37,938 nucleotides of DNA from Kiritimatiellia bacterium (GCA_035450385.1 DAOTMQ010000002.1:1-37938); one strand, 5' to 3'; positions 5,368-37,449 are shown, counted from the first letter of the stretch. The notes: generated from the letters alone by a model not told the origin. Made by a program: numbers and translations.

Positions 5368-5401
5368 GTAATAACGCTCAACGTTCAAGTAAAATGCAGA
5401 T

Positions 5402-5451
5402 GTGGCACGGGCATCTTGCCCGTGTTTCATGGGCGGGGACGCCCATGCCAC
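5402..5451 (+). repeat. REP-like double-hairpin element, copy 1
   Basis: GTGGCACGGGCATCTTGCCCGTGTTTCATGGGCGGGGACGCCCATGCCAC. It has two 8-bp hairpins closed by GTGG/CCAC. The same unit recurs at 8131, 17438 and 37511. Confidence 0.8.
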
Positions 5452-5763
5452 GAGGGGTTTTCAAGAGTCTCGTATGTAAGCCTGGCGCGAGGATTTGGAG
5501 TGCGGCGGCAAGCGGTATTCCGCGCGACGCCGCTTTTTGCGCGTTGAAAGTTGAACGTTGAGAGTTGAGCGTTTCCGGGGCGGAGAGAGTGGTGCCGTGG
5601 CCTGAAAGGTCACTTCAAAAAAACGGTCGGACGCGGGGTTGAAGTGCCCCTTCAGGGCACGAGAAGGCAGGGTGACGTTACCCGGGGCTGCGCTGCGCTT
5701 GCCCCGGGCTATGGTGCATCCGGCCCTTTGGGCCGGTGGGAGGGCGAGCGTCCCCGCGAGCCG

Positions 5764-5975
5764 CACTTAGTCCCTACACTTAATCCCTGCACTTCGTCGT
5801 TTACACTTAGCCCAAACACAAACACTTAGTCGGTTAGTCTCCCCACTGGTCGCCAGCACAAGCGACTGAGTTTTGGGGATCGGTGCGTATGCAGGACTAA
5901 GTGTGGAGACTAAATGTATGCGGGACTAAGTGTGGAGACTAAGTGTATTCGACTAAGAGTGGGGACAAAGTGTGT
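5764..5975. repeat. Dense inverted array of ACTAAGTG / CACTTAG octamers, including a 29-bp tandem duplication (5891-5919, 5920-5948)
   Basis: Five CACTTA(G/A)-type units lie in 5764-5843. Five to six CTAA(G/A)TG units lie in 5891-5975. The two 29-mers differ at 2 positions. Confidence 0.65.
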
Positions 5976-6027
5976 CTCCGCGCACAGCGCGGAGAGAAAG
6001 CGGTGCCGCGACCCGCGCACAGCGCGG
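5976..6027. repeat. Two CCGCGCACAGCGCGG hairpin palindromes (5976-5994, 6013-6027); a related copy lies at 8015-8045
   Basis: CTCCGCGC-ACA-GCGCGGAG is a perfect palindrome. The same core occurs again 20 nt downstream and on the other side of the island. Confidence 0.6.
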
Positions 6028-6140
6028 CTCTTGTCACCGCACTCCAAAATTTTTCCGCCGCGCCATGCGCGGCACAACCTTTATGCGCCCACGTAGCGGG
6101 AAATCATGTCCCAAAAACGCAACTCCTTACCTCTTACTTA

Positions 6141-6767
6141 TTACCTCTTACTTCGTGTCCGGCGGCGGGCGGCGTATTTGGCGGGGGATTCTTTCACGCT
6201 GAAGCCGATTTTGCGCGGGGGTGGCGGCGGGGCGGGATGCTCTGGCGGGTCGATCAAGTCCAGAATGCGTTGCATCACTTCAACAATGGCGGCGTCGTGC
6301 GAATCGAGGCGTGACTTGACCTCGCATTCAAGCGTTGCCAGTTTACGCGCCAGCTCACGGGTATCAGAGAGCGCGGCTCGCATTTTCGTGAAGGCGCGTA
6401 CCACGAAGACGCTCATCTCCATCGCCCGCTTGCTATTGAGCACATTAGCCGCCATCAGAGCGCCGTGCTCGGTGAAGACGCGAGGCGGATGCTTGCGATG
6501 TTGTCCGCGCTTTAAGATCACATTTTGTGATCTTAAAGCTGTAACGGCTTCCCATTCGATTTTTGAAAGCGTAAAGGAGAAATCCTCCGGGAAACGGTCT
6601 GGATTGCGCTTGACCTGCTGGTTGAGGGTGCGGACTTCTGCGCCGTATATCTCCGCCAAGTCGCTATCGAGAATCACCCTTTCGCCTCGGATGGTAAGGA
6701 TCCGGTCTTGCAGATCGGGTACGACATCAATCTCCTGTTTGGTCTGCTTCTTTTGGGGTGTGCTCAT
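6141..6767 (-). CDS. ORF6N-domain (KilA-N-like) DNA-binding protein with a coiled-coil and basic C-terminus
   Basis: IRGERVILDSDLAEIYGAEVRTLNQQVKRNPDRFPEDFSFTL...LRSQ...FTEHGALMAANVLNSKRAMEMSVFVVRAF matches the ORF6N family pattern. Codon third positions look more A/T-rich than in neighbouring genes. Confidence 0.8.
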   Translation of the reverse strand: MSTPQKKQTKQEIDVVPDLQDRILTIRGERVILDSDLAEIYGAEVRTLNQQVKRNPDRFPEDFSFTLSKIEWEAVTALRSQNVILKRGQHRKHPPRVFTEHGALMAANVLNSKRAMEMSVFVVRAFTKMRAALSDTRELARKLATLECEVKSRLDSHDAAIVEVMQRILDLIDPPEHPAPPPPPRKIGFSVKESPAKYAARRRTRSKR

Positions 6768-6777
6768 CTTTTTTTCT

Positions 6778-6837
6778 CAGAGTGATCAATTCAAGTGTTG
6801 CGCATGATAACCCCATGAGCGGATTTGGACAAGGCGG
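6778..6837 (-). promoter_or_regulatory. Promoter-like repeat, copy B1 (TTGTCC-N17-TATCAT on the minus strand) upstream of the ORF6N gene
   Basis: The -35 element is the complement of 6827-6832 and the -10 is the complement of 6804-6809, with exactly 17 nt between them. About 85 percent identical to copy B2 by eye. Confidence 0.5.
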
Positions 6838-6847
6838 GAAATAACGT

Positions 6848-7831
6848 TCAACGCTCAACTTTCTCAGGGCCAAGCAGCTTCTCGACGCCTGTCACGTCGC
6901 CGAAATATTGCTCGCTCCATGTGTAGAGCGGGTAGCCGTGTGCCTTGCGGTAGGCGACGAGTGCCTCGGTGTTCGCCTTGGACTTGTGCGCAACCGCCTC
7001 GAAGAACAGCCTCGCATGGTCATGCGCGACGCGCAGGTCCTTCACCAGCGAACGTTGCGGCCCCTCGGTGGGGCACGTCTCGGCCGCCGCCACAAATCTC
7101 TCCGCCGCGTCGAAATCCTCGCTCCGGTAGTAGTCGTTGAGGTTTCGGACAAGTCCGCGGCCGAAGTTGAAATAGCGGCCCTTGGCGACAATCGTCTCGA
7201 TGTTCGGTTCGAGACGCTTGTTCCAGACCTCTTCGCGCCAGAACCGGTAATAGGCCTTTACATCGTCCTTGGCCGCGCCATGGGCCTGAAAGAAGTGATC
7301 CTCCCAGTGGGCGAACGGCTTGGACGGATCCTGCATCGCATGCTGCAGGATGTATCGTTCGAACCAGTCGAAGCCGCCGGGCGAGGCTGCGGGTGCGTCA
7401 TAGTCGAAGCCGAGGGTGCCCTGCGAAACCAGATACTGAAAGATCTTGAAGAAGTGCTCTTCCTGACCCGTCGGCAGGTAGGGCGACCGGTAGTAGTGAT
7501 GCCGATTCGGGCGATAGAAGAAGTGCTCCGCCCCCGCCTCCTTCCAACTGTCGACGTAGGATACGATGTCCGCATACGTAAATGACGTCGGCACGAGCCC
7601 GATGACGCTTGCGGCGTCCGGTCGCATTTTTTCCGGCGCGTCTTGCGAGGCGTTGTAGGCGTAGTAGGCGACTTTCACATCTGCGCGGTGCGGGCGCGCG
7701 ACCTTCAGGACCTGATTGCCGAAATAGACATACCGGTCTGCATAGTGCGTCTCCCACTTCGGGTCGACCTTCGCCGGCACGACGTCCAGCGCCTTGCACG
7801 ACGGACACTGGCAGGAGTTCTGTCCCGGCAC
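6848..7831 (-). CDS. DUF4838-like C-terminal fragment (probable 5-prime-truncated gene remnant or pseudogene)
   Basis: It starts at the CQCPSC motif, which in the full-length paralogue (10109-12418, CECEKC) lies about 280 aa after its start. About 280 N-terminal residues are therefore missing. The only start is a GTG with no SD. It is in frame with an upstream 28-codon ORF (7939-7853) that ends in TGA. Confidence 0.6.
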   Translation of the reverse strand: MPGQNSCQCPSCKALDVVPAKVDPKWETHYADRYVYFGNQVLKVARPHRADVKVAYYAYNASQDAPEKMRPDAASVIGLVPTSFTYADIVSYVDSWKEAGAEHFFYRPNRHHYYRSPYLPTGQEEHFFKIFQYLVSQGTLGFDYDAPAASPGGFDWFERYILQHAMQDPSKPFAHWEDHFFQAHGAAKDDVKAYYRFWREEVWNKRLEPNIETIVAKGRYFNFGRGLVRNLNDYYRSEDFDAAERFVAAAETCPTEGPQRSLVKDLRVAHDHARLFFEAVAHKSKANTEALVAYRKAHGYPLYTWSEQYFGDVTGVEKLLGPEKVER

Positions 7832-12830: not shown

Positions 12831-12914
12831 GCTCGGGTGGTGGAATGGCAGACACGTATGTTTGAGGGACATATGCCGAGAGGTGTGGGGGTTCGAGTCC
12901 CCCCCCGAGCACCA
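12831..12914 (+). tRNA. tRNA-Leu (anticodon GAG), type II with a long variable arm, CCA encoded
   Basis: Acceptor stem GCTCGGG/CCCGAGC. Anticodon stem TATGT/ACATA with loop TTGAGGG. T arm GGGGG-TTCGAGT-CCCCC. The variable arm is 13 nt. Confidence 0.9.
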
Positions 12915-24370: not shown

Positions 24371-24622
24371 TACTGCGAAAAATTATTTTTTTATTTTTTT
24401 GTTTTAACCGCGAATTGCGCGAATTATGCGAAAAAGCACAGCACTGTTTTCGTTTGTTTCGTGTTTTATGGTTAGGAATTGAGCATTGAGCGTCGGTTCA
24501 CTACTTCTTCCCGCTATTAACTATTCACTATCGTCATTCACTCTCTCCTCGACGGATGCGCCCATTTAGACTACCATCTGGAAACAGTTGAATGGTGGTT
24601 CATGCGAAACGGCGGAGGCAGT

Positions 24623-27600
24623 ATGGAGAAAACGTGGGTTCCGGTTGTCTTATTGGCGTGTTTTGTGTGTCAGGCGCTTCGGGCGCAGTCGGGCGCGTGG
24701 GCGGTGGATGCCGATGGCACATGGGCAGATACCGCAAATTGGCTGGATGGTGTGGTGGCGTCCGGTCCTGGGGCGACGGCATTTTTCACAAACTCGGTGA
24801 GTGCGCGGCGTACGGTCGAGGTGACGGCTCCGGTCGACATCGAGGTGTTGCGGTTCGGTTCGCCGAACTATAACAGTTGGCGCTTGACCGGTGACGGGCC
24901 GATCACTCTGGGGGGCGTCGCCAAGCCGCGTATCGGTTCGACAGCCGACCGACGGGTCGAAGTCCTGACGCCGTTGGCGGGGACGAACGGCGTCATCAAG
25001 GAGGCTCTGCCCGGAGATATTGAGTTGGCGGGCGACAACTCGGGCCTTGCGGGTCTGGTCGAGTTACGGAGCTACACGCTGGCGCAGACTATGTCGAAGT
25101 CTGCCGCATCGCCGGCACCGTTAGTGCGTGACTATTTCCCGACCGGTGGCGTGATCATGGCGGGGGGACGCTTGGAGTTGTTGGGCCGCAAGAATGGCAA
25201 CGCCGTTGTCTCGCCGGACTGGACTTTGGTTCAGGATTCGGTACGCGTACAGGCGTCCGCCACCAATGCCACGGTCACCCTCGCTCCAGGACAGCAGGTG
25301 ACGGGCAACGGGATTCCCGCCGGTACGTACATTCGCCAGATTTTGGACGGCTCGAATCTCGTGCTGAGCGCGGCGGCGGAGCAGTCGGGTACCGAGACGC
25401 TGACCTTCGAAGCCGCCGCTTTCCGTTCGGAGCAGCTTTTGCAGCGGGTGCGTGTGGAGAATGGACAAGATTTCCGGATCCATCGCAACGGCGGCAGTTC
25501 GTTCACGGTCGAGGTCGATCGCGTCTACGGGCCCGCCAACTGGGCGCTGAAAAACGGTGACGCGGTGGTCAAGGTGCCGGGGCTGCGTGAGCACCGGGGC
25601 ACCCTGCAGTTGCACAGCGTGGATTTGACGCTGGCGCCCAAGAGTGTTACGCGCCAGCCTGCGGCGGGGCCGGTCTTTCATGTCGATGCCTCGTGCGAGG
25701 ACACGTTGGTCTTCGACGGTGGTGGCAACGAGGTTGTGGAGTGGCACGATGTAAACGGTAATGGCCTTTATGCCAAAGCACCGGGCTTGAAACCGACGCT
25801 GCTGCCGGATGCGCTGAACGGCCGGCCGGTGGTGGATTTCGGTCCCTTCGGCACTAGCCCCTACATGCATTGGTACGACGCGCAGGGCAAGATTGAACTG
25901 ACGTCAATCCGTGCGGTTTTCTGGGTGTTGGGCAGCCAGAACGGCGGCGGGTTTCTGCTGGGCGCGTCGACCACTGCACACTTTCATCGCGGTAATGCCC
26001 CGAACGGCGTGTTCTACCCGATCATGACGTCCTCTCAGCTCTGGGGGCATGATTGGAACACCTATCCGGGCGGCGGACGTGTCGAGACCTACATCGACGG
26101 CATGCGCGCCGGGGCGTCTGCCGCGCTCAACGGCGGTTATCAGGTGATTGCCTGCCAGATCGCCACGAACGTCACGGCCGGCGGGTTCGCCACAGACCGC
26201 AATCACTTCCCAGACCGTCGTGGCGGACAGCGGTTGGCCGAGGTCATCATTTATGACCGCCCGCTGACTGAACTGGAGCGCATCGAGACCGAAGAGTACC
26301 TCATGGCAAAATGGTTTGGTGATACGCGCTGGGATTCAGGCGGCCAAGACCCGGTCGTTAATGATCTGAATGCACAGGGCGTGCGCACGGTAAATACGCC
26401 CGACAGCGGGGTGGCGACGATCGGGCGTCTTTCGGGAGGCGGTAGGCTGGTGAAAAACGGCGGTAGCGATCTGGCCATCGTCGACGCGCAGGAGTATGCC
26501 GGGATGATCGCGCTGAGCGACGGGGGCTTGCGCTTGACTGCCGCGGCCGTGCCCGAAGCACCAGCGGCGGATGCCTATTTCCATGTAGATGCCAGCGTGG
26601 CGGAGTCTTTGACCTTGGACGAAGAGGGGCGAGTATTAGCCTGGCAGGATTGGCGCGGCAACGGGCTCGCGGCTACAGCGATGCCAGACTTCAATGCGCC
26701 TGCTTCATTGGCGCACGCTTTGAATGGACATCCGGTGGTGGATTTCGGGGCGATCGGCTCGCGTCAAGCACTCGCCTGGAATCACACGAACGACGCAATC
26801 CGCGCGGCGTTTGTCGTCTTCCAGAGCCTTTCCGGTAACGCGCAGTTGCTGGGAGGTATGTCGGGACAACCGCAGGACTTCTACCGCAATGGTTCCGGTC
26901 CGCTCTATCGTGATGGCACGGTTGCTGGCGATATGGCTAGCCGTGCGGTGGTCTATGGCGCAAACTATGTGGACGGTTGGCGCGTTGAACCGCTGGTCAC
27001 GCCGCTGCCGTCCAGTTTTTGCGTGGTCAGCGTGATCCCGACAACCCCTGCGCGTGCCAGTGCTTTTGCTCTGGATCGCAGCGTGACCTCCCGCTCGGGC
27101 GGACAGCGCCTGGCCGAAGTGATCCTCTACACGCATACGCTTACGGATCAGGAGCGGCGCGACACCGAAGCCTATCTCATGCGCAAGTGGCTGAATCGCG
27201 CGGCACCGGGTTACGGCGCGCCTGAATTGGCGCAGGTCCCGACGGTCTCGTACGCGGGGGCCGCGCTCCCCGTGCGTGTTGATGGTGACGGTACGGCTGC
27301 TCTGGGCCAGTTGACCGGCAGCGGCACAGTGGTCAAAAGCGGCAGCGGCACATTGACGTTGGGTTGCGGTGCACTGGGATTGATCGGTGCGGTCGAGGTG
27401 GAAGAAGGGGCTGTCTCGGCAGTGGCGCCATCTAGCGCGGCCCCCGCGTCGTTCCCGGTTTTCCATGTGGATGCCACGCAGACCAACCGGATGACATTCG
27501 TGCAGGAGAACGGCACAAATTTCATCACGCGCTGGCCGTCATGCGCGCCTGTCTCCAATGCTGCGGTTGAACGCGCGGGATACCGGCTGCCGTATTTGAT

Positions 27601-29500
27601 CGAGAATGATCTGAACGGCTTGCCGGCTGTTGGGTTCGGCCCGTTCGGTAGCACGGGGGGCTGCTTGAGGTGGGAGACCGCCGTGAGGACCATCCGGTCA
27701 GTTTTCGTCGTGCTCGGAAGTCAGGAGGGCGGCGCGTATGTGTTGGGCGGAACCGGCACAGCGCATTTCCACCGCGGTGTCCGCCGTAACAATACATTCC
27801 TGCCGGTCACCAAAGACAATGCGCTCTATGGCTATGACGTCTCGCCAAACGTCCTCAACGGGATGACCTATCTGGATGGCGCACGCGTAGCGAGTCCGAC
27901 TGTGCAAGCGCTCTCGGGCGGGTATCAAGTGATTGAGGCGATGACGCTCGATGTGGTGACCGCCGATCTGTTCGGTGGCGACCGGGCATTCACTGATCGG
28001 GCGGGCGGTTTGCGTTTGGCGGAGGTGATTGTGTACGATCGGCCGCTGACTGAGTTCGAGCGTGTGCAGACAGAAAACTACCTGATGGCCAAGTGGTTCG
28101 ACAGACAGCCGCTGGGTGCGGGGCTCGGCACGGTCAGACTCACGGACGGGACGGGTGTCCAAGCCGAAGGTTCGCCGGTCACACTCAACCGCTTGGTCGG
28201 CGAGGCGGCGGTCGTCAAGACCGGCGATGACATGCTGACGCTCCGCGATACCACCGCCTTCACGGGTACGGTGGAGGTGACTGCCGGCACCCTGAATCTG
28301 GCAGTGCCGGCCGCGCCGCTCGCGCCGCCTGCGGGTACGCTCTTTTGGGTGGACGCCGCCACACCCGGCACGATTGATGCCGACGAGGCTGGCGGTGTGA
28401 TCGAGTGGCGCGATGTCACCGGCAACGGCCGCCACGCGCGCCCGCGTGCAGGGCGTAGCGCCCCGACGCTGACAGGCAATAAAGTCGCCGGATTGCCGGT
28501 GGTGGACATGGGGCCCTACGGTATCGCCGGTGGCACCGGCATGTTATGGAATGAGCGGATCACCGGCATGCGGACGGTCGCATGGGTGCTCGACAGCCAG
28601 ACGAGCGGCGGTTATCTGCTGGGCGCGACGAACGCCACTACCTTCCATCGCGGGCCGCCGCCGGAAGGCGGGGAGATCAATGTCACAAATTTCACCCACC
28701 GTAATTTCATGCTTTCAAAGAAGTGGGGTGCCGTCATGCCGACTGCCACGTATACGAACGGGGTGTCGGTCGACCCGGATGTAACCCCGTTGTCAGGCGG
28801 CTATCAAATCATCGTGATGACGTGGAACGGTGGCACCTATGCAGACGGTTTTGCGTTTGACCGTCTGATGGGCGACCGCTACGGAGGCCAGCGGCTGGCG
28901 GAGTTTTTGGTGTATGACCACGTCATCACCGAACAGGAACGGTTGGATTTGGAAGCTTACCTGAATCAAAAATGGTTCCGCGTGCAGACAGCAGGTTATG
29001 AGCGTCCGGTGACGCATACCGGTGTGATCCTGCATGAGGGCGCGGCGTTGACGATGGACGGCGGCGAGCAGTCGGTCACCACCCTGTCCGGGGCGGGCGC
29101 GGTGTCGAACGGTACGCTTGTGGTGACGGAACGCTTGAGCCCAGGGATTGCTGCGGGGGCATGCGCTACGCTCGCTGTCGACGGCAATCTGACACTGGGT
29201 GCTGGTGTTGAGTGCGTGATTGATGTGGATGCGCTAAATGCGGACGCGATCACCGTGAGCGGCGGACTGTCCTTGGCGGGTACCGGCACAGTCGCGGTGC
29301 GGTCGTCGGTTCCGGCGAATGTCCTGCTGGGAATTGGCAGCATTCCTGTATTCGCCTTCGATGTTTTGGATGGCGCGCAACACCTGTCCGCATGGAGCGT
29401 TACAGGAGTGCCGCCGGGCTACAGTGCCCGGTTGCTCGTGGAAGGACAGACCGTCCGCTTGGCCTTCGCCGCAGACGGCACGCTGATCTTGGTGCGTTAA
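24623..29500 (+). CDS. Giant secreted protein with autotransporter-associated beta-strand (PATR)-like repeats alternating with four LamG/concanavalin-like modules
   Basis: GGAGG lies 4 nt before the ATG at 24623. Signal peptide MEKTWVPVVLLACFVCQALRAQS. The four ~215-aa modules each start (P/Y/L)(V/F)(F/H)(H/W)VDA and end GGQRLAE(V/F)(I/L)(I/V/L)Y...(T)E.ER...E.YL..KW. Confidence 0.8.
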   Translation: MEKTWVPVVLLACFVCQALRAQSGAWAVDADGTWADTANWLDGVVASGPGATAFFTNSVSARRTVEVTAPVDIEVLRFGSPNYNSWRLTGDGPITLGGVAKPRIGSTADRRVEVLTPLAGTNGVIKEALPGDIELAGDNSGLAGLVELRSYTLAQTMSKSAASPAPLVRDYFPTGGVIMAGGRLELLGRKNGNAVVSPDWTLVQDSVRVQASATNATVTLAPGQQVTGNGIPAGTYIRQILDGSNLVLSAAAEQSGTETLTFEAAAFRSEQLLQRVRVENGQDFRIHRNGGSSFTVEVDRVYGPANWALKNGDAVVKVPGLREHRGTLQLHSVDLTLAPKSVTRQPAAGPVFHVDASCEDTLVFDGGGNEVVEWHDVNGNGLYAKAPGLKPTLLPDALNGRPVVDFGPFGTSPYMHWYDAQGKIELTSIRAVFWVLGSQNGGGFLLGASTTAHFHRGNAPNGVFYPIMTSSQLWGHDWNTYPGGGRVETYIDGMRAGASAALNGGYQVIACQIATNVTAGGFATDRNHFPDRRGGQRLAEVIIYDRPLTELERIETEEYLMAKWFGDTRWDSGGQDPVVNDLNAQGVRTVNTPDSGVATIGRLSGGGRLVKNGGSDLAIVDAQEYAGMIALSDGGLRLTAAAVPEAPAADAYFHVDASVAESLTLDEEGRVLAWQDWRGNGLAATAMPDFNAPASLAHALNGHPVVDFGAIGSRQALAWNHTNDAIRAAFVVFQSLSGNAQLLGGMSGQPQDFYRNGSGPLYRDGTVAGDMASRAVVYGANYVDGWRVEPLVTPLPSSFCVVSVIPTTPARASAFALDRSVTSRSGGQRLAEVILYTHTLTDQERRDTEAYLMRKWLNRAAPGYGAPELAQVPTVSYAGAALPVRVDGDGTAALGQLTGSGTVVKSGSGTLTLGCGALGLIGAVEVEEGAVSAVAPSSAAPASFPVFHVDATQTNRMTFVQENGTNFITRWPSCAPVSNAAVERAGYRLPYLIENDLNGLPAVGFGPFGSTGGCLRWETAVRTIRSVFVVLGSQEGGAYVLGGTGTAHFHRGVRRNNTFLPVTKDNALYGYDVSPNVLNGMTYLDGARVASPTVQALSGGYQVIEAMTLDVVTADLFGGDRAFTDRAGGLRLAEVIVYDRPLTEFERVQTENYLMAKWFDRQPLGAGLGTVRLTDGTGVQAEGSPVTLNRLVGEAAVVKTGDDMLTLRDTTAFTGTVEVTAGTLNLAVPAAPLAPPAGTLFWVDAATPGTIDADEAGGVIEWRDVTGNGRHARPRAGRSAPTLTGNKVAGLPVVDMGPYGIAGGTGMLWNERITGMRTVAWVLDSQTSGGYLLGATNATTFHRGPPPEGGEINVTNFTHRNFMLSKKWGAVMPTATYTNGVSVDPDVTPLSGGYQIIVMTWNGGTYADGFAFDRLMGDRYGGQRLAEFLVYDHVITEQERLDLEAYLNQKWFRVQTAGYERPVTHTGVILHEGAALTMDGGEQSVTTLSGAGAVSNGTLVVTERLSPGIAAGACATLAVDGNLTLGAGVECVIDVDALNADAITVSGGLSLAGTGTVAVRSSVPANVLLGIGSIPVFAFDVLDGAQHLSAWSVTGVPPGYSARLLVEGQTVRLAFAADGTLILVR

Positions 29501-29502
29501 GT

Positions 29503-29686
29503 CTGCGATTCAGACAGTGGGGAAGCGGGCGGGGATTGCGCGTCTGGTTGACAGGTAGTCGGCGTCAAGGACAGCAAGTGTTAGCGGGGTGTTGAGCGAC
29601 GGAATGCCCCGGCCGGGGACGTCCGTCACCCGGTGTCCGTTTTCCCTGTTTTTTTTTCAAAAAAATGTCCACTGTCTGAATCGCAG
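29503..29686. repeat. Perfect 18-bp inverted repeat (CTGCGATTCAGACAGTGG / CCACTGTCTGAATCGCAG) enclosing 148 nt
   Basis: The arms lie at 29503-29520 and 29669-29686. The interior holds the CCCCGGCCGGGG palindrome and a T9/A7 tract (29651-29666) that may terminate the giant gene. Confidence 0.55.
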
Positions 29687-29825
29687 CGAAGGAGCTTCGG
29701 CACTTGCATGGACAGCCAAGGTTGCGTTATACTGGATCTCAATGGGCAGAGGCGTTCCTTTGCGGCGTGTTCGGGGGAAACGGAATGGTGCCGGACGCCG
29801 ATGCGCCAGCAGATGGTAGTATGTC

Positions 29826-30635
29826 ATGATGATTGATAAAGATAATCAGGGAGCCGCAACCGCCACCGTGACGGTGGGCGATGTCGTTTTTGGTGGTCAG
29901 CGATTGGTGCTGATCGCCGGTCCTTGCACAGTGGAGGATCGGACGCAGATGATTGAAATCGCTTGTGCCGTGAAGGAGGCGGGCGCGGTGATGTTGCGGG
30001 GCGGGGCTTTCAAGCCGCGCTCATCGCCCTACGCTTTTCAAGGCCTGTGTGAGGAGGGTCTCGAGATTCTGGCGGAAGCGCGCGAGCGCACCGGGCTGCC
30101 GGTCGTGACGGAAGTCCTGGAATCCTCACAGTTGCCGATCGTCGCGGCGGTGGCGGACATGTTGCAGATCGGCTCGCGCAACATGCACAACTCTGTCCTG
30201 CTGCGCGATGCCGGTGCCAGCGGCAAGCCTGTGCTGCTCAAACGCGGCATGAGCGCTACGATCCAGGAGTATCTGTATGCGGCGGAGTATGTCTTGAGCG
30301 CGGGCGGGCGACATGTGGTGCTCTGCGAGCGCGGCATCCGCACGTTCGAGACCGCGACGCGGTTCACGCTTGATCTAAGCGTCGTGCCGCTGCTGAAGGA
30401 GCAGACTTGGTTGCCGGTGATCGCGGACCCGAGCCACGGAACGGGCAAGGCATCGCTGGTGCCGCCCATGGCCCGCGCGGCGGTGGCCTGCGGCGCGGAC
30501 GGCTTGATCATGGAGGTCCACCCCTTTCCGAATCGCGCGCTGTGCGATGGCGACCAGAGCGTGACGCCGGAAATGTATAGCAACTTGGTCAAAGAACTGC
30601 GGGCGATCGCCCAGGTGGTGGGGCGGGAAGTTTAG
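29826..30635 (+). CDS. 3-deoxy-7-phosphoheptulonate (DAHP) synthase, class I-beta, unfused
   Basis: [20 protein letters not shown]...[18 protein letters not shown]...ADPSHGTG is the class I-beta DAHPS/KDO8PS-like signature. Confidence 0.85.
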
Positions 30636-30747
30636 CTGTCGGATGCGCTCTGCGCCGCCGAGCGGTTCTCGACTGGCGCGGGCCGGAAAACGCAAACGGA
30701 AACGAGAGGCCGGAGGCGGTAAGCCGCCGGAGAGTTGAGGAGACGGG

Positions 30748-32649
30748 ATGAAGCGAGTAGTGGCGGTGGTGGTGATCGGTGCCGCAGTGTGTGCGGGGGC
30801 GGCTTCGTATGTCTCGCCCGAATGTCTGGCCGTGGCACCGGACGGCAGACGTGCCTATGTGACATCGGCGACCGGCGGTCGTCTGCTGGTGATGGACCTC
30901 GATAACGCCAAGGTCACGGGCGAGTGGCTGCTCAAGAATAAAACGGAGCGACCGAGTGGTTTTTGGTCTTCAATTTTCGGTGGTGGCGCGGCGAGATCAG
31001 CAGATCCGAGCGGTGTCGCCGTGGCACCGGACGGAACGGTTTTCGTGACCGGCGGCGGGGCGGGGGGGTTCGTGCAGAAATTTACGGCGGACGGCACACC
31101 GGCTGTGCAGGCGGCAGCCGGCCACACGCCACTCGCGCCGGTCGTGAGCCCTGATGGTTCCACGCTTTACGTACCCTGCCGTTTCGACTCCTGTGTCAGG
31201 GTGTTCGACGCCCGCACGCTGAGTGTCAAGGCGACGGTACCGGTGCAGCGCGATCCGGTTGCAGCGGCGCTCGGCGCAGGTGGTCGTCTGCTGTTTGTGG
31301 CGAACATGCTGCCGTTCTGCCCCGCCACCAATGCGGTTGTTGCGGCATCGGTTAGTGTGATCGACACCTCTGCGGACTACGCCGTGAAGCATGTGATGCT
31401 GCCCAACGGTTCGACCGGCGTGCGCGGTGTCGGCGCATCGCCGGACGGCAAACAGATCTATGTCACCCACACCTTCGGTCGCTACCAACTCCCGACGACT
31501 CAACTCGAGCGCGGCTGGATGAATACGGCGGGGCTCAGCGTCTTTAACGGCGAGACGGGCGCGTATGTCAACACGGCGCTCTTGGATGATGTGGATCTCG
31601 GCGCGGCGAACCCTTGGGGCGTGGCGGTCTCTCCAGATGGCAAGCAGTTGGTGGTGGCGCACGCCGGTACACGTGAACTGAGCGTGATCGACCGTGCTGC
31701 GTTCCATGCGCGTCTGGACAAGGCGGCGCGCAACGAGAAGGTCACCGAGGTGACGAAGTCGGCGACCGACGTGCCGAACGATCTCTCGTTCCTCGTCTCC
31801 GTGCGCCGCCGCGTGAAACTGGACGGCGACGGCCCCCGCGGCGTGATGGTGGTCGGCAACACCGTTTACACGGCGCTCTATTTCGCGGACACGCTGGCGG
31901 TCTTATCGCTGAATGACGCGACCGCAGGACCGACAACGGTCGCGCTGGGCGCACCGGTCGATCTCAGTAAGGATCGCGTGCGGCGCGGCGAGATGTTGTG
32001 GAACGACGGCACCATGTGTTTCCAGCACTGGCAGAGTTGTGCGAGCTGCCACCCCGAAGGCCGCATGGACGCGCTCAACTGGGATTTGCTGAATGACGGC
32101 ATCGGGAATCCCAAGCAAAGCAAGAGCCTGATCTACACCCACCTGACCCCGCCGACCATGGTGACCGGTATTCGCCCGGACCTTCAGGCCTGCAACCGCA
32201 AGGGGATCACGCACATTCAGTTTTTGGTGCGCCCGGAGGAGGACGCGCTCTGTCTGGACGCCTACACGATGTCCCTCAAACCGGAAATGAGCCCCTACCG
32301 CGTCAACGGCGAACTCTCGGCCAAGGCGAAACGGGGCGAGCGGCTGTTCAAGCGCGCCGGTTGCGCGGAGTGCCACCCCGGCGACAAGGTCGGGCCGCAG
32401 GGGGAGCGCCTCTATACCAATCTCAAAAAGTATAACCTCGGGCTGGGGATCGGCAATGAAGAGGGGCGTGAATTCGACACTCCCACGTTGATCGAGGTGT
32501 GGCGCACGGCACCGTATCTGTACGATGGCCGGGCATTGACCATGCAGGAACTTCTGAAGGGGTGCAATCCGCAGGACAAGCATGGCACGACACAAAACTT
32601 GACCGACGAAGAGGTTGATGCGTTAGCGGAGTTTGTGCTATCTCTTTGA
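30748..32649 (+). CDS. Secreted beta-propeller (YVTN/YncE-type repeats) fused to a di-haem cytochrome c peroxidase/MauG-family domain
   Basis: It has a signal peptide. Repeated (V)SPDG(K)x(L/I)YV blades form the propeller. There are two CxxCH motifs: CASCH at 32038-32052 and CAECH at 32362-32376. FDTPTLIEVWRTAPYLYDG is the CCP-family C-terminal motif. Confidence 0.8.
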   Translation: MKRVVAVVVIGAAVCAGAASYVSPECLAVAPDGRRAYVTSATGGRLLVMDLDNAKVTGEWLLKNKTERPSGFWSSIFGGGAARSADPSGVAVAPDGTVFVTGGGAGGFVQKFTADGTPAVQAAAGHTPLAPVVSPDGSTLYVPCRFDSCVRVFDARTLSVKATVPVQRDPVAAALGAGGRLLFVANMLPFCPATNAVVAASVSVIDTSADYAVKHVMLPNGSTGVRGVGASPDGKQIYVTHTFGRYQLPTTQLERGWMNTAGLSVFNGETGAYVNTALLDDVDLGAANPWGVAVSPDGKQLVVAHAGTRELSVIDRAAFHARLDKAARNEKVTEVTKSATDVPNDLSFLVSVRRRVKLDGDGPRGVMVVGNTVYTALYFADTLAVLSLNDATAGPTTVALGAPVDLSKDRVRRGEMLWNDGTMCFQHWQSCASCHPEGRMDALNWDLLNDGIGNPKQSKSLIYTHLTPPTMVTGIRPDLQACNRKGITHIQFLVRPEEDALCLDAYTMSLKPEMSPYRVNGELSAKAKRGERLFKRAGCAECHPGDKVGPQGERLYTNLKKYNLGLGIGNEEGREFDTPTLIEVWRTAPYLYDGRALTMQELLKGCNPQDKHGTTQNLTDEEVDALAEFVLSL

Positions 32650-32686
32650 GGACGACAGACGGTATCTAGACAAAAAAAGGGATCGT

Positions 32687-33715
32687 ATGCGGAGACTTTT
32701 TTACGGCGGTGTGGCGCGACACCAAGAGATGGGAGTTTGGACGGTTGACCGCGGTGTGCCGCAGGTTGTGCGCGGACGTACGATTTCGCAGACCGGTTGG
32801 GCTAGCCGTGAGCAGTTGTTGCAGGCATCGGTCGGTGCGAAGGATCCATCAGTCCCGCAACTCTGGCTATGTGGCGGCAGCGGCGAATTGCCACCGGTCT
32901 ACCAGCGGTATGTGGCGAGCGGCGCGGAAATGCGGCTCATCCGGCGTCACGGGTGTGTCGTTGGGACGGCTTATCATGACGACTTTGCCGAGTATTGCCT
33001 GCTTACCGGTGTACTGCCGCCCGATCTGACCGCGTCGCGCGAGGCGCAAACGACGGCGGTTTTCGAGGGCATCGAGGACGCGCTCGCGGATGCCGGCATG
33101 ACCTTTGCGAACGTCGTGCGCACATGGCTCTACATGGATAACATCCTTGACTGGTACGATCCTTTCAATCGCGCGCGCGATGCGTTTTTCCGGTCGCGCG
33201 CGGTTTATGATGGGCTTGTGCCCGCGAGCACCGGTATCGGCAGCGCCAACCTGTACCGCTCAGCGATCACCGCCTGTGCCATCGCGATCAAACCGAGGCA
33301 GCCCAGTGCGGTAACAATAGAGCCGATCCCCTCGCCCTTGCAGTGCGCGGCGCTGGAGTACGGCAGTTCGTTCAGCCGGGCGGTGGAGATCGGGACGCCG
33401 GAGTGCCGCACGCTGATGGTGTCCGGTACGGCCAGCATCGAACCGGGCGGCGCGACGGCCCATGTGGATGACGTGCCGCGCCAGATCCAACTGACGATGG
33501 ATGTGATCGAAGCGATTCTGGCGTCGCGCGGCATGGGCTGGCGCAACGTGACGCGTGCGATCATGTACCTGAAGAAGGCCGCCTACATGCCAGAGTGGCA
33601 GGAGTGGTTGCGTACACGCTGTCTGGAGCGTCTGCCGCTTATCACGATCGAGGCGGATGTCTGTCGCGACGACTTGCTCGTGGAAGTTGAAGTCGACGCG
33701 ATAAAACGGGCGTGA
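32687..33715 (+). CDS. Tandem RidA/YjgF-fold protein resembling FkbO/Hyg5/XanB2-type chorismatases
   Basis: VRTWLYMDNILDWYDPFNRARDAFF, VPASTGIGS, SFSRAVEI, LMVSGTASIEPGGATAHVDD...Q and ADVCRDDLLVEVEV match my recollection of chorismatase conserved blocks. The assignment has not been verified by search. Confidence 0.55.
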   Translation: MRRLFYGGVARHQEMGVWTVDRGVPQVVRGRTISQTGWASREQLLQASVGAKDPSVPQLWLCGGSGELPPVYQRYVASGAEMRLIRRHGCVVGTAYHDDFAEYCLLTGVLPPDLTASREAQTTAVFEGIEDALADAGMTFANVVRTWLYMDNILDWYDPFNRARDAFFRSRAVYDGLVPASTGIGSANLYRSAITACAIAIKPRQPSAVTIEPIPSPLQCAALEYGSSFSRAVEIGTPECRTLMVSGTASIEPGGATAHVDDVPRQIQLTMDVIEAILASRGMGWRNVTRAIMYLKKAAYMPEWQEWLRTRCLERLPLITIEADVCRDDLLVEVEVDAIKRA

Positions 33716-34479
33716 AAAAACTCCTGAACAGATGGACCGGCCCCGCGCCGGCGGCCTGGCTGTGCTGGGCGCTCGCGCTCGGGGCCGTGGTGCTGGCTTT
33801 CCTCGGTGCGGAGCGTGCCGGTGTCTGGATGGCGCGGCCGATCATGCAGGTCGGTGTTGCGTTTCTGATGCTCGTTTTCTTTTTTGTCGGCGTACGTGCG
33901 GTGTTGCGACGCCGCTTCGACTCGGCGCTGCTGCACATTGGGTGCGCCTGCGTGTTGGCCGGATGGTTGATGGGGCGCTATGCGATCCGAACCTCCACAG
34001 CCGCGCGTCCCTGTACCGGTTCGATGGTGATGGTCGACGGCGACGAGTCGGACCGTCTGTGGGAAGGGCCGATGCTTGATCAGTATGTGGGGCAACTCCC
34101 TTTCTCGGTGCGTCTGGAACGCTTTTTTGTGGAGCGCTACGATCGCAACAGTGACGACCGCAATGCGGGACGCAACGCGCCGGTGCGGGAGTACCGCAGT
34201 CGCGTAACGATCACAGAGCCGGGGCGACCGCCTTATGTGGTCAATATACGCGTCAATGAACCGGCCTTTGTATGCGGTTACCACATCTATCAGATGAGCT
34301 GGGGCAATAGCACGGATCAACTGGGACGGCCGGTCGTCTATACGGTGCTGCAATTCATCCGTGATCCGGGGCTGAAACTGGCGTATGCCGGCTTCATACT
34401 GCTGCTTGCCGGTATCCTGATCTATGCTTGGCGCATCTTCCGCATTCAGGGAACGCAGCCGAGGGAGGTGCCAGCATGA
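33712..34479 (+). CDS. Short ResB/Ccs1-like cytochrome c biogenesis (System II) protein
   Basis: The GTG start overlaps the upstream stop (GTGA, 33712-33715). It has TM segments, and LPFSVRLERFFVERY...YRSRVTI...IRVNEPAFVCGYHIYQMSW is the ResB C-terminal signature. It is only 255 aa. Confidence 0.65.
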   Translation: MKKLLNRWTGPAPAAWLCWALALGAVVLAFLGAERAGVWMARPIMQVGVAFLMLVFFFVGVRAVLRRRFDSALLHIGCACVLAGWLMGRYAIRTSTAARPCTGSMVMVDGDESDRLWEGPMLDQYVGQLPFSVRLERFFVERYDRNSDDRNAGRNAPVREYRSRVTITEPGRPPYVVNIRVNEPAFVCGYHIYQMSWGNSTDQLGRPVVYTVLQFIRDPGLKLAYAGFILLLAGILIYAWRIFRIQGTQPREVPA

Positions 34480-35261
34480 CGGTGAAAATGACCGTACAGG
34501 GCGGATTGATCTACCTGACGCTGGTGTTCTTTGTGGCGACCATCATCGCGCGGCGCGGCGGCTGGCGCACCATCGGCAACGCCTTCTGGGGGACCGGCTT
34601 CGTAGCGGCCGTCGCGTCGGTCATCTGGCGCGGGCTCCACACCGGCCATCCTCCGATGCAGAATCTCTTTGAGTTTTTCCTGTGCATGGCGGCTGCGCTC
34701 TGGCCGCTTTCCGTCTTGAGCCGTCGGCACAACGGACTGGACACGACCGTGCAGGATGCGCTGTTGGGCGTGCTGATCCTCATGCCGGCCGGCTTTGTGT
34801 TCGGTGAGGATGTGCGGCGTCTGCCCCCGGCTCTGCAAAGTTCGCTCTTTATCCCGCACGTCGGTAGCTATGTGGCCGGGTATGTCCTGCTGGCGCGTGC
34901 AGCGCTGATGGCCTTGCCGCTGTTCAAACGGGACATCGCTGGCGACCGATTGCGCCAGACGGAGACGGCCTCACGCCAGACGGCGACGATCGGTTTTGTA
35001 CTGCTGACGCTGGGATTGCTGCTCGGCTCGCTGTGGGGAAAAATCTGCTGGGGACACTACTGGCAGTTCGACCCCAAAGAGATGTGGTCGCTCGCGACAT
35101 GGCTGGTCTATGCCGGCTACTTCCATGAACGCATGGTGCACGGCGTGCGCGCGCCGCGCGTTCTGGCGGCATTGCTCTGGACCGGCCTGCTCTTCATCGT
35201 GCTGACGCTGACCTGGATCAACCTGTCGCGCCTCTTTGTCGGCATGCACAACTATGCGTGA
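34476..35261 (+). CDS. ccsA: Cytochrome c biogenesis protein CcsA (haem exporter/handling, System II)
   Basis: WGHYWQFDPKEMWSLATWLVYAGYFH is the W-rich haem-handling motif. The ATG overlaps the upstream stop (ATGA, 34476-34479) and is preceded by GAGGGAGG. Confidence 0.8.
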   Translation: MTVKMTVQGGLIYLTLVFFVATIIARRGGWRTIGNAFWGTGFVAAVASVIWRGLHTGHPPMQNLFEFFLCMAAALWPLSVLSRRHNGLDTTVQDALLGVLILMPAGFVFGEDVRRLPPALQSSLFIPHVGSYVAGYVLLARAALMALPLFKRDIAGDRLRQTETASRQTATIGFVLLTLGLLLGSLWGKICWGHYWQFDPKEMWSLATWLVYAGYFHERMVHGVRAPRVLAALLWTGLLFIVLTLTWINLSRLFVGMHNYA

Positions 35262-35265
35262 CCGA

Positions 35266-36468
35266 TCAATAGCGACCGAGGTGTTTGTTCATCAAATCCG
35301 CCAACCGCGTTTCCAGCCAGGGCGTCACCTTCCAGAAGTCGCGCAGTTCCAGATACTCGCTCACGGCGGCCTGCTGACCCGGCTTTACGCTAAATTCAGC
35401 CCGCAGCAGGATGTTCCGCGCCGTAGCCTCGGCCGAGACAAACTCCATCACCTGCACACGGAAACCGAGCACGCGCAGGATCTGCGCACGGAAGGTGTCG
35501 GTCAACAGATCAGCCAGTCTCTCACGCAAAATACCGTGGCGTAGCACCGCCCGCATCGGTCCGTCCACTCCAAGCGACTTGTGCAGTTCATGCTGACAGC
35601 AAGGCGCGCGCAACAGATAACGGCACTTCCATTCGATGCCACGCGCCAGCGCTTCATCCGTCGCCGTGTCGCAGGCATGCAGACTCAACACCATATCCGG
35701 AGCAAACGGCACGTCACTGTCCGCAAGTGTGCCCTCAACGAACGTCACATGCTCCGACACGTCCAGCGCGTCGGCCATCGCGCGCGCTGTCGCAATTACA
35801 TTGGCCTGCTTGTCGATTCCGCAAACCCTGACATCGAACCCGCGCATGATCGTCAGATAGAAATAAACCGCCAGCGTGAGATAGGCACGACCGCAACCGC
35901 AATCCACGATGTTTAACGTCTTCTCTGGTTTCGCGGCGATCGTGGCATCGATGATCCGTAAAAACTCATTCACCTGATCATACTTGCCGCGCATTGACGC
36001 GCGGATATTTCCGTCGGCATCCGCAATCCCGAGTGTTTTTAGCAAGGGAGCCGAGTCAAATGCCGTCAGCGGCTGGCGTTTGACCCGGTCATGGCCCTGC
36101 CGCTCATCGACTTTGCGCGTCATCCGGCCGCTCCGCGATATCAGCGCTTTGCCCTTTTTGGTGATGCGCACATGCAGGTCGCCCGAAGCCGTTATCAGGT
36201 GCAGCTCACGCGGACCGGTCTGCCCCAGCATCTCCTCCAGACCGGCGCGTGCGCTGTCCGGATCGAAGTTCTTCACCTGCGTACGTCCGTCTTCCGTCAT
36301 CTCCCCCTGATACTTGTTTTCATCTTTGATGACCACCGGACGCAAGCTGACACGGAATATCCCGCCCCGTCCGCGCACAACCTGCGTCAGTTTCATAAAG
36401 CCACTTTCATTGAAAACCCGGTCGCGGATCTCCTCCGCAATACTTTCCGGCAAATCCGTTCGCGTCAT
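35266..36468 (-). CDS. Class I SAM-dependent methyltransferase with an uncharacterised ~170-aa N-terminal domain
   Basis: Motif I is IVDCGCGRAYLT. The downstream acidic and aromatic motifs fit a Rossmann-fold methyltransferase. The substrate is not inferable. Confidence 0.65.
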   Translation of the reverse strand: MTRTDLPESIAEEIRDRVFNESGFMKLTQVVRGRGGIFRVSLRPVVIKDENKYQGEMTEDGRTQVKNFDPDSARAGLEEMLGQTGPRELHLITASGDLHVRITKKGKALISRSGRMTRKVDERQGHDRVKRQPLTAFDSAPLLKTLGIADADGNIRASMRGKYDQVNEFLRIIDATIAAKPEKTLNIVDCGCGRAYLTLAVYFYLTIMRGFDVRVCGIDKQANVIATARAMADALDVSEHVTFVEGTLADSDVPFAPDMVLSLHACDTATDEALARGIEWKCRYLLRAPCCQHELHKSLGVDGPMRAVLRHGILRERLADLLTDTFRAQILRVLGFRVQVMEFVSAEATARNILLRAEFSVKPGQQAAVSEYLELRDFWKVTPWLETRLADLMNKHLGRY

Positions 36469-36606
36469 GTTTGCCTAACCTTTCAATCGTGTGTGAGTGT
36501 GGGAGTGATTGTACCACGTATGTCCACCAAACGGCCAAGAGAAGTTCGGATTTCGGTTTGAAAGGGCCTAAAAAACGCCTAAAAAATGCGCGGTTTGCGC
36601 TGGACG

Positions 36607-36635
36607 GGACGGAGGGGGTTTGGTACCCTCCGTCC
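36607..36635 (+). promoter_or_regulatory. 10-bp-stem hairpin in the rpmI-rplT leader
   Basis: GGACGGAGGG-N9-CCCTCCGTCC with no T-tract after it. It lies ~100 nt upstream of the rpmI start. Confidence 0.4.
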
Positions 36636-36734
36636 TTCCTCGTCGCAGAGGCGATGGGACTTGCGATCCTGCATGGGCGATCATGGCTGGCTGCCCTGCG
36701 GGTTCAGGCTTCAACCACAGGACTAGGAGCGATT

Positions 36735-36932
36735 ATGCCTACGATGAAGACCAAGAAGTCCGCCCGCGGGCGGATTAAAATGTCGGCCACGGGTAAAGTG
36801 TTGCGCACTCAGGCGGGCAAGTCCCACCTGAACGGCTACAAGCCGCGCAAGCGCAAACGGCATCTCCGTGGAACCACTCTTGCAGATAAAACGTTTGTCA
36901 AGACTGCGGTACGCATGCTGCAGGGCAATTAA
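36735..36932 (+). CDS. rpmI: 50S ribosomal protein L35
   Basis: MPTMKTKKSARGRIKMSATGKVLRTQAGKSHL..., 65 aa. AGGAG lies 5 nt upstream. Confidence 0.9.
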   Translation: MPTMKTKKSARGRIKMSATGKVLRTQAGKSHLNGYKPRKRKRHLRGTTLADKTFVKTAVRMLQGN

Positions 36933-36947
36933 CACGGAGTAAGACCC

Positions 36948-37304
36948 ATGTCACGAGCAACAAATGCACCTGTTTCACGTAAACGCCGTCGTCGGCGTTT
37001 GGAGTTGGCTAAGGGGTTCCGCGGTGCCCGCAGTAAGCAGTTCCGTCTGGCAACCGAGGCGGTTGACCGCGCTCAGCGCCTGGCGACCGTACACCGCAAA
37101 CTGCGCAAGCGCACGTTCCGCCGTTTGTGGATTGCCCGTATCAATGCGGCGGTCCGCAATGAGGGAATGACCTACAGCCGCTTCATGGAAGGATTGACCA
37201 AGGCTGGTATCGAGGTCAACCGCAAGATGCTGTCCGAGATCGCGATTGCCGATGTCGAGGGCTTTAAGGCTCTGGTCGAGAAGGCGCGCGCCGCGCTCGC
37301 TTGA
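36948..37304 (+). CDS. rplT: 50S ribosomal protein L20
   Basis: MSRATNAPVSRKRRRRRLELAKGFRGARSKQFR...RRLWIARINAAVR is the canonical L20 sequence pattern. Confidence 0.9.
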   Translation: MSRATNAPVSRKRRRRRLELAKGFRGARSKQFRLATEAVDRAQRLATVHRKLRKRTFRRLWIARINAAVRNEGMTYSRFMEGLTKAGIEVNRKMLSEIAIADVEGFKALVEKARAALA

Positions 37305-37373: not shown

Positions 37374-37449
37374 GGGGCGGTAGCTCAGTTGGTAGAGCAT
37401 CACGTTCGCAACGTGGGGGTCAGGAGTTCGAATCTCCTTCGCTCCACCA
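37374..37449 (+). tRNA. tRNA-Ala (anticodon CGC), CCA encoded
   Basis: Acceptor stem GGGGCGG/TCGCTCC with the G3:U70 alanine identity pair. Anticodon loop TTCGCAA. T loop TTCGAAT. Confidence 0.9.

Follow-up and report, generated by a model that had tools for sequence, protein, structure and literature searches.

A hydrazine synthase-like di-haem cytochrome and a chorismatase-fold protein encoded by a conserved gene pair in Kiritimatiellia and other bacterial phyla

Introduction

Chorismatases are, to our knowledge, found in polyketide, xanthomonadin or ubiquinone contexts and never adjoining a c-type cytochrome. RidA, the namesake of a related fold, is a homotrimeric imine deaminase with a protomer of ~125 amino acids (aa). 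For the chorismatase Hyg5, the role of a catalytic glutamate has been described, along with a subfamily triad that reads G173/G240/C327 in Hyg5 and G/A/A in FkbO, as derived via the Nat-hyg5 equivalents (PMC7170507). Hydrazine synthase (HZS) handles NO and hydroxylamine, and it was not until 2025 that Hagglund et al. reported fused beta-gamma HZS homologues from organisms other than anammox bacteria, without a proposed function and with no mention of a RidA or chorismatase neighbour (PMC12758564). Here, we describe a locus in which relatives of these enzymes are encoded side by side. Positions 30748 to 35261 of a 37,938-nucleotide (nt) stretch of DNA from a Kiritimatiellia bacterium (GCA_035450385.1, DAOTMQ010000002.1:1-37938; the whole stretch is referred to below as the window) encode, in this order, a propeller/di-haem cytochrome (PROP), of which HZS is the closest characterized relative, a chorismatase-fold protein (RID2) and the cytochrome c maturation proteins CcsB (ResB) and CcsA.

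Results

All genes of the locus lie on the plus strand: PROP (30748-32649, 633 aa), RID2 (32687-33715, 342 aa), a compact CcsB/ResB (33712-34479, 255 aa) and CcsA (34476-35261, 261 aa), with a gene for 3-deoxy-D-arabino-heptulosonate 7-phosphate (DAHP) synthase (29826-30635, 269 aa) ending 112 nt ahead of PROP. Read directly from the sequence, the open reading frames (ORFs), both CxxCH sites of PROP and the three junctions were all where the initial annotation of this DNA had placed them. The stop codon of PROP (TGA, 32647-32649) is followed by a purine-rich gap of 37 nt, including AAAGGGA, before the ATG of RID2 at 32687; RID2 and CcsB overlap in GTGA (33712-33715), the GTG start of CcsB sharing the RID2 stop, and CcsB and CcsA overlap in ATGA (34476-34479), where the ATG of CcsA shares the stop of CcsB. 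Of the 15 large ORFs in the window, only that of PROP encodes a CxxCH protein. A promoter and terminator scan of 29400-35700 gave counts no higher than those in shuffled sequences, and an Rfam search of the whole window, in which two tRNAs were the sole matches, found no riboswitch ahead of either the DAHP synthase or the cytochrome genes.

The four genes from PROP to CcsA had been proposed to form a translationally coupled module. They do form a tight, conserved unit, whose order and tight junctions recur in relatives; because they do so at 50 to 80% protein identity while the flanks differ, the arrangement is not due to chance. The closest homologues are 81% identical and come from Kiritimatiellia. 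As a module, however, the claim was too broad: although the four-gene order recurs in Kiritimatiellia and Victivallales, the conserved core comprises PROP and RID2 only, to which the ccs and DAHP synthase genes are add-ons. This became clear from a comparison of the neighbourhood across genomes, a check suggested by the initial annotation for the Planctomycetes-Verrucomicrobia-Chlamydiae (PVC) group, for which 88 RID2-anchored loci were collected from GTDB species representatives and other public assemblies (89 with the window). In 44 of the 89 loci, the gene immediately upstream of RID2 is PROP, in the same orientation, and four more loci are cut by a contig end. The spacing is mostly between -4 and +50 nt, and the loci carry the labels Kiritimatiellia, Victivallales/Lentisphaerae, Planctomycetota (including Phycisphaerales), Verrucomicrobiota, Hydrogenedentota and Armatimonadota. 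In summary, the conserved core is a PROP-then-RID2 pair with almost no intervening sequence, shared by at least six phyla.

The genes downstream of the pair vary freely and include those for a GDSL lipase, RadC, guanylate kinase, GH20, QueH and TerC. The ccs pair follows RID2 in the clade of the window (L001, L006, L007, L008, L011, L013, L169, L170 and L172), and the full four-gene order, with overlapping stop and start codons, is also present in a Victivallales genome (L041). In another PVC-group genome (L079), the order is PROP, RID2, an HZS-alpha protein fused to an FGE-like domain, ResB (402 aa) and CcsA (644 aa), and one locus (L003) retains RID2-ResB-CcsA without PROP. DAHP synthase, which had been pointed out as an upstream neighbour, is a conserved one within the clade of the window and in that clade only: it precedes PROP in six loci with unrelated upstream flanks, the relatives with the gene at the same place being L001, L004, L005, L008 and L169. 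Genes for the compact CcsB with CcsA and for DAHP synthase are found in a minority of lineages and represent additions specific to these. The DAHP synthase itself is of class I-beta (NF006421, 411 bits with a cut-off of 335; TIGR01361, 369 bits), and since the 338-position NF006421 model is matched only from position 79 onwards, the protein is without the N-terminal regulatory domain.

PROP begins with a Sec-type signal peptide (MKRVVAVVVIGAAVCAGA/AS) at its N-terminus and contains two haem sites, CFQHWQSCASCHP (32017-32055), in which CASCH corresponds to residues 431 to 435 (32038-32052), and GCAECHP (32359-32379), in which CAECH corresponds to residues 539 to 543 (32362-32376). Pfam assigns YVTN/lactonase-type propeller repeats, a class I cytochrome c domain and a partial CCP_MauG domain, the last with 32 bits (gathering threshold, 25.6) over model positions 3 to 76 of 149 only. 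The initial annotation had called this protein a secreted propeller/MauG-family peroxidase; the exported YVTN propeller with two CxxCH sites stood, but the family turned out to be that of HZS beta-gamma, and the inter-haem Trp of CCP/MauG is missing. The top matches among solved structures are Kuenenia HZS gamma (5C2V_C; E value, 2.4e-23) and beta (5C2V_B; 1.7e-21), versus E values of only about 1e-6 for solved di-haem CCPs. Similarly, the best Foldseek match of the predicted propeller is 5C2V_B (E value, 1.4e-22; TM-score of 0.84 on the target). The propeller of the AlphaFold model is good; the haem domain (residues 421 to 495) has a pLDDT below 50 and was not used for conclusions.

All NCBIfam matches of PROP nonetheless remain below their cut-offs, with 144.8 bits for hydrazine_BC (cut-off, 1250), 86.2 for gamma (625) and 83.2 for beta (560). 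The position of HZS gamma-His144 is that of the catalytic Trp of CCP/MauG and is a Trp in clades I to III of Hagglund et al. (PMC12758564). In the HMMER alignment, this position, and with it that of the inter-haem Trp, is taken by Val472 in PROP and is variable across the family. HZS gamma-Cys165, the residue of the third covalent haem bond, aligns to Gly486 of PROP, which is not conserved, in a loop whose HMMER alignment is of modest confidence. The nearby Cys482 is near-invariant in close Kiritimatiellia homologues and conserved in less than 80% of 46 PROP sequences from all phyla. Because PROP is closest to HZS beta/gamma, yet below the cut-offs and without the His144, the Cys165 and the Trp, it does not qualify as a hydrazine synthase or as a canonical CCP/MauG protein; it is an exported HZS beta-gamma-like cytochrome, as reported outside anammox bacteria. 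The MauG/MbnH-type modifying enzymes were rejected as the closest family, with the HZS beta-gamma match at least 15 orders of magnitude better and the Trp absent. An additional cysteine, Cys424, located seven residues ahead of the first CxxCH (CFQxWQSCASCHP), is kept in 80 to 95% of the 46 homologues and could serve as a third haem link or as a disulphide partner.

In many relatives, PROP is accompanied by a second haem protein. A large cytochrome with an HZS_alpha middle domain, often fused to an FGE/PvdO-like domain, is encoded beside PROP in 13 RID2 loci and in many PROP loci; it is present, among others, in L008, L038, L042, L055, L061, L078, L079 and many metagenome loci. Such HZS-alpha-FGE cytochromes are exported proteins of 1150 to 1365 aa with two CxxCH sites (L008, 9620-13234; L042, 3791-7888; L079, 3204-6644). 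Their FGE/PvdO-like domain is C-terminal and of the sulfatase-modifying-factor fold, and their genes adjoin PROP in many phyla. In one locus (L023, 5741-9517), an exported HZS-alpha-domain cytochrome has HEAT repeats in place of the FGE/PvdO-like domain. In PROP-anchored metagenome loci without RID2, frequent neighbours of PROP and its alpha-like partner are genes for sulfatases (12 loci), alpha-L-fucosidases (7), malectin-domain proteins (7), GH130 and GFO/IDH/MocA oxidoreductases. These flanks, considered alongside the FGE-like domain, hint at a link to sulfated-glycan metabolism, but they may equally reflect the mere gene content of the host genomes.

RID2 was initially described as chorismatase-like. 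Its fold, its catalytic glutamate and its G/G/C signature bear this out, although it misses the curated chorismatase thresholds. Pfam finds two Ribonuc_L-PSP stretches and scores FkbO_Hyg5-like_N at 23.5 bits (cut-off, 27); the curated chorismatase model TIGR04444 gives 58.4 bits (cut-off, 325; distant family members score 53 to 61 bits), and the detoxifying Rid family hydrolase model TIGR00004 gives 39.7 bits (cut-off, 106). The best sequence matches in the PDB are Hyg5 (5AG3, residues 87 to 335; E value, 3.7e-10) and FkbO (4BPS; 2.5e-7). An AlphaFold2 model (pLDDT, 90.4) contains three RidA-like lobes and, in Foldseek, matches Hyg5/FkbO over its full length with E values of 1e-21 to 4e-16 and TM-scores of 0.72 to 0.77 (Hyg5, 1e-21 and 0.73; FkbO, 0.74 to 0.77). 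The next fold class in the same search consists of Toblerone-fold hydrolases (TM-score, 0.4), and single-domain RidA structures cover one lobe of the model (query TM-score, about 0.3).

Conservation of individual residues was assessed in 113 family members aligned with the Hyg5 and FkbO sequences. Among the residues common to Hyg5 and FkbO, the RID2 family keeps, at 99 to 100%, Arg145, Trp147, Tyr157, Arg164, Pro-Ala-x-Thr-Gly-x-Gly, Tyr225, Phe229, Arg231, Ser-x-Thr-Ala, Gln266, Tyr294 and Arg327. The corresponding motifs on the plus strand are RTW (33119-33127), PASTGIGS (33221-33244), FSRA (33371-33382) and SGTASI (33422-33439), and a C-terminal motif, DVCRDDLLVEVE (33656-33691), includes Cys326 and Arg327 as well as Glu333, the predicted catalytic residue. 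Glu333, 99% conserved, aligns to the catalytic glutamate (E334 in Hyg5, E338 in FkbO), and the triad is of the Hyg5 type (Gly183/Gly247/Cys326, each at least 99% conserved). The family also has invariant residues of its own, Trp156, Asn161, Ser216 and Gln219. RID2 has Gly255 and Val273 in place of a His and an Asn that are present in both Hyg5 and FkbO, and because of these replacements, its substrate may differ.

Since the family lies far below the curated chorismatase cut-offs, it is a divergent clade that has gone unannotated: its members are labelled in the sources merely as "RidA family protein" or "enamine deaminase". The family is large, with 562 clusters at 50% identity (E value of at most 1e-30), and occurs in at least 558 GTDB species. 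The full-length three-lobed fold and the catalytic residue set rule out a generic RidA deaminase, and we predict from residues and fold that RID2 is a divergent chorismatase-type enzyme, putatively of the 3-hydroxybenzoate-forming type. RID2, a cytoplasmic protein, has no signal peptide, and none was seen in 26 N-termini of the family, so the idea that a hidden one on longer homologues places both partners in the periplasm was discarded.

As for the maturation genes, the initial annotation was right about both a miniature ResB and a W-rich haem-handling motif. CcsB matches the ResB model of Pfam at 67.7 bits (gathering threshold, 24.6), over positions 154 to 269 of 486 only. It has hydrophobic segments near residues 10 to 38, 38 to 67 and 219 to 246, a short periplasmic domain of ~120 residues (about residues 95 to 215) and a segment, ALLHIG (33925-33942), with His75, which is conserved in 105 homologues, including those of the Victivallales locus L041, the 402-aa form of L079 and L013. 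CcsB aligns to the CcsB part of 25vk (E value, 2.6e-7) and 7S9Y over the periplasmic core and the final helix, and the pairing of His75 with the TM-His segment of 7S9Y relies on a weak local alignment. As all of the about 120 relatives among the matches listed are roughly 250 aa long, the compactness of the 255-aa CcsB is a feature of the lineage rather than the result of truncation. CcsA scores 110 bits against Cytochrom_C_asm of Pfam and 129 bits against TIGR03144, below the equivalog cut-off of 187.6. Its P-His1 (IPHV, 34851-34862), WWD domain (WGKICWGHYWQFDPKE, 35034-35081), TM-His2 (YFHER, 35118-35132) and C-terminal P-His2 (GMHNYA, 35241-35258) are all present, and the WWD domain and three His segments are in register with the CcsBA structures 25vk and 7S9Y.

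The coupling between PROP and RID2 has clear limits. From the side of PROP, 80 metagenome loci (L089 to L168) were collected with a Planctomycete-first alignment, and 75 of them were testable; RID2 (cluster 5) is the commonest downstream gene in this set, but it follows PROP in only 16 of the 75, leaving 59 without it. From the side of RID2, about 40% of loci lack PROP within 10 kb, and RID2 without PROP adjoins housekeeping genes (CysRS, PDH E1 and PGM) in many Verrucomicrobiota and some Kiritimatiellia. A second context, found in at least 12 loci with four phylum-level labels, places RID2 behind a haem-free exported set: a DUF1549/DUF1553 protein, a DUF1501 protein with a Tat signal and a 750-aa PPC-domain protein precede RID2, tightly spaced and on the same strand. 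These loci include L051, L066 to L069, L071, L080, L084, L087 and L088 (about 4.5 to 10.9 kb in each); none of the proteins contains a CxxCH, and this partner set eliminates a haem-related role of RID2 in which all partners are cytochromes. One Kiritimatiellia metagenome-assembled genome (MAG) carries two RID2 copies (L039, JASLPY010000035; L054, JASLPY010000048), neither of which adjoins PROP, and a Kiritimatiellota MAG (L171) has a compact ResB-CcsA with neither PROP nor RID2 at the locus. A DUF116/polyprenyl synthase fusion (5337-6962) lies directly upstream of ResB-CcsA in the latter.

In a neighbor-joining tree of RID2, the genomic contexts are interspersed, and a mirror-tree comparison of RID2 and PROP distances gave r = 0.70 overall and 0.23 outside Kiritimatiellia. 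The pair is real and ancient, but because RID2 also occurs alone or behind the haem-free set, with interspersed contexts and one MAG with two copies, it is facultative.

Finally, the window has several features outside the locus. A 1632-aa secreted protein (24602-29500) shows a weak, sub-threshold PATR match and several long internal repeats that end in an RLAEVI-Y-L...E-YLMAKWF-like motif, YLMAKWF occurring in its exact form at residues 566 and 1160; in relatives, giant proteins of a similar kind are encoded next to the locus. On the minus strand, a 400-aa S-adenosylmethionine-dependent methyltransferase (Methyltransf_32, 35266-36468) is convergent with CcsA, with 4 nt between the stops, and relatives have a 2-thiouracil desulfurase/DUF1722 gene at this position instead. 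Two small ORFs within 36471-37304 look, from their translations read by eye, like ribosomal proteins L35 and L20. The tRNAs are tRNA-Leu(GAG) (12831-12914) and tRNA-Ala(CGC) (37374-37449).

Discussion

Our tentative reading, which could well prove wrong, is that the locus is a self-contained operon in which a periplasmic HZS-like di-haem cytochrome is made together with a conserved cytoplasmic partner, whose chorismate-derived aromatic product serves the haem enzyme. From what is known of the families, apo-PROP would be exported by the Sec system, CcsB and CcsA would export haem and ligate it through thioether bonds at both CxxCH sites of PROP, and the unregulated DAHP synthase core would let more flux into the shikimate pathway. 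RID2, judging by its residues, would cleave the enolpyruvyl group of chorismate to yield pyruvate and a hydroxybenzoate, predicted to be 3-hydroxybenzoate. As the coupling of the genes suggests, the aromatic might then leave the cytoplasm and act in the periplasm as a substrate for oxidative modification, a redox mediator or a ligand of the haem enzyme, the partner of which, in relatives, would be the HZS-alpha-like cytochrome with its FGE domain. The wider claim, that a two-compartment pathway of this kind is widespread in PVC and allied phyla, with an exported hydroxybenzoate being oxidised or used as a cofactor or mediator by a periplasmic di-haem enzyme, appears unlikely to us.

Several observations weigh against an aromatic-dependent haem enzyme. 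The locus encodes no exporter for an aromatic product, 3-hydroxybenzoate is no obvious choice as a redox partner, and an HZS-alpha-like gene was sought in the window, with no HZS_alpha match among its large ORFs. RID2 stays below the curated chorismatase cut-offs (58 versus 325 and 23.5 versus 27 bits) and has lost the His and the Asn mentioned above. The inference also loses strength because either partner is often encoded without the other. The same loose association speaks for an explanation without any shared pathway, in which RID2 is a general PVC chorismatase, the ccs genes are an ordinary System II beside the main or only c-type cytochrome, and the pair persists through ancestry and the convenience of co-expression rather than through metabolic coupling. 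RID2 alone beside housekeeping genes, the 59 of 75 PROP loci without RID2, ResB-CcsA alone behind a polyprenyl synthase and the poor correlation of distances outside Kiritimatiellia all fit this explanation. So does the uneven distribution of c-type cytochromes: some Kiritimatiellales lack them, others have many (Kiritimatiella glycovorans lacks both quinones and cytochromes [PMC5148204], and Pontiella possesses menaquinones together with several c-type cytochromes [PMC7356697]), which makes the placement of ccs genes beside their client plausible. However, mere neighbours would hardly be expected to keep an adjacency of -4 to +50 nt in six phyla, at ~45 to 50% RID2 identity and while the surroundings turn over, and RID2 stays directly after PROP even where alpha-like, ccs or DAHP synthase genes have been added. 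The two different exported gene sets, moreover, each come with a RID2 clade of their own. On balance, we consider neighbours without a shared pathway somewhat doubtful as an explanation.

If, instead of making an aromatic, RID2 were a Rid-superfamily hydrolase that shields the cytoplasm against a reactive product of the periplasmic HZS-like enzyme (for example, through hydrolysis of the imine, oxime or hydrazone adducts that hydroxylamine-like N species form), this would agree with the match of its lobes to Ribonuc_L-PSP and TIGR00004 (39.7 bits), with its failure to reach the chorismatase cut-offs and its two changed Hyg5/FkbO-common residues, and with the chemistry of HZS, the closest characterized relative of PROP, which handles NO and hydroxylamine (PMC12758564). 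We nevertheless regard such a role as very unlikely, as the HZS-critical residues are not conserved in PROP (PMC12758564), RID2 also accompanies the haem-free exported set, and the linkage to DAHP synthase points to chorismate. Moreover, the full-length fold and catalytic set of RID2 are those of a chorismatase and not of a single-domain RidA (TM-score, 0.73 versus 0.3). A non-catalytic role of RID2 in maturation or targeting, as a pre-export chaperone or a haem-delivery factor for CcsBA built on a RidA scaffold, would account for its position immediately after genes whose products carry signal peptides (PROP or the DUF1501(Tat)/PPC set), for the translational coupling of its stop to the CcsB start and for the RID2-ResB-CcsA locus without PROP (L003), but it is extremely improbable given a catalytic-type residue set that is strictly invariant in 113 sequences, the many free-standing RID2 copies and the fact that we know of no precedent for a RidA-type fold as such a chaperone.

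The components of the locus belong to known or near-known families; what is new, and was not found described, is their pairing and the divergent chorismatase-like clade. Our literature searches found no published description of the PROP-RID2 pair, of a chorismatase with ResB/CcsA or of this chorismatase-like clade, in line with the initial impression that no chorismatase-cytochrome-ccs system had been described, and literature on YVTN/CCP/RidA in Verrucomicrobia and on DUF1501/1549/1553 gave no account of the pair. That one large clade of HZS-like cytochromes carries a conserved small-molecule enzyme partner offers a testable handle on the role of these cytochromes outside anammox bacteria, and a large chorismatase-like family, annotated everywhere as generic RidA, is now defined. 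If active, the RID2 clade would, for the first time, take chorismatases beyond secondary-metabolite, pigment or ubiquinone contexts. Should the two-compartment pathway hold true, it would constitute an undescribed aromatic-dependent periplasmic haem system and provide a first chemical hint at the function of hydrazine synthase ancestors. Additionally, the 255-aa CcsB, consisting of a His-bearing helix and a ~120-residue periplasmic core, represents a natural minimal haem channel partner of System II.

When compared with known systems, CcsB and CcsA resemble System II CcsBA (7S9Y and 25vk) in the WWD domain, the His set, the beta-rich periplasmic core and the adjacent, coupled genes. Unlike full-length System II ResB, CcsB has 255 aa with a periplasmic domain of ~120 residues and matches only positions 154 to 269 of the 486-position model, and the locus differs from System II loci in that a cytoplasmic enzyme gene is wedged between client cytochrome and synthetase and in the absence, at the locus, of the CcdA/ResA thiol-reduction genes. 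PROP shares with the di-haem CCP/MauG/MbnH proteins two CxxCH sites spaced according to the same logic and a C-terminal F-D-x-P-x-L...APY-x-x-DG block, but it is set apart from them by its propeller fusion, by a match to only a third of the CCP_MauG model and by the Val at the position of the inter-haem Trp. With HZS beta/gamma (Kuenenia 5C2V; fused in Scalindua), it has in common an exported chain in which a seven-bladed propeller is followed by a CCP-like di-haem domain. It diverges from HZS beta-gamma in its score (145 versus 1250 bits), in the Val replacing gamma-His144 and in not keeping an equivalent of gamma-Cys165, and its locus departs from HZS in that the window has no alpha-like gene and the alpha-like partners of relatives are fused to an FGE/PvdO-like domain.

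RID2, in turn, is unlike RidA in being a three-lobed chain of 342 aa that stays below the TIGR00004 cut-off. It is like Hyg5 and FkbO (EC 4.1.3.45; 5AG3, 5A3K and 4BPS) in its fold, in Glu333, in the PAxTGxG and SxTAS motifs and in the G/G/C signature, and differs from them in its identity of about 24%, in Gly255 and Val273, and in belonging to a PVC-wide family that is apparently one of primary metabolism.

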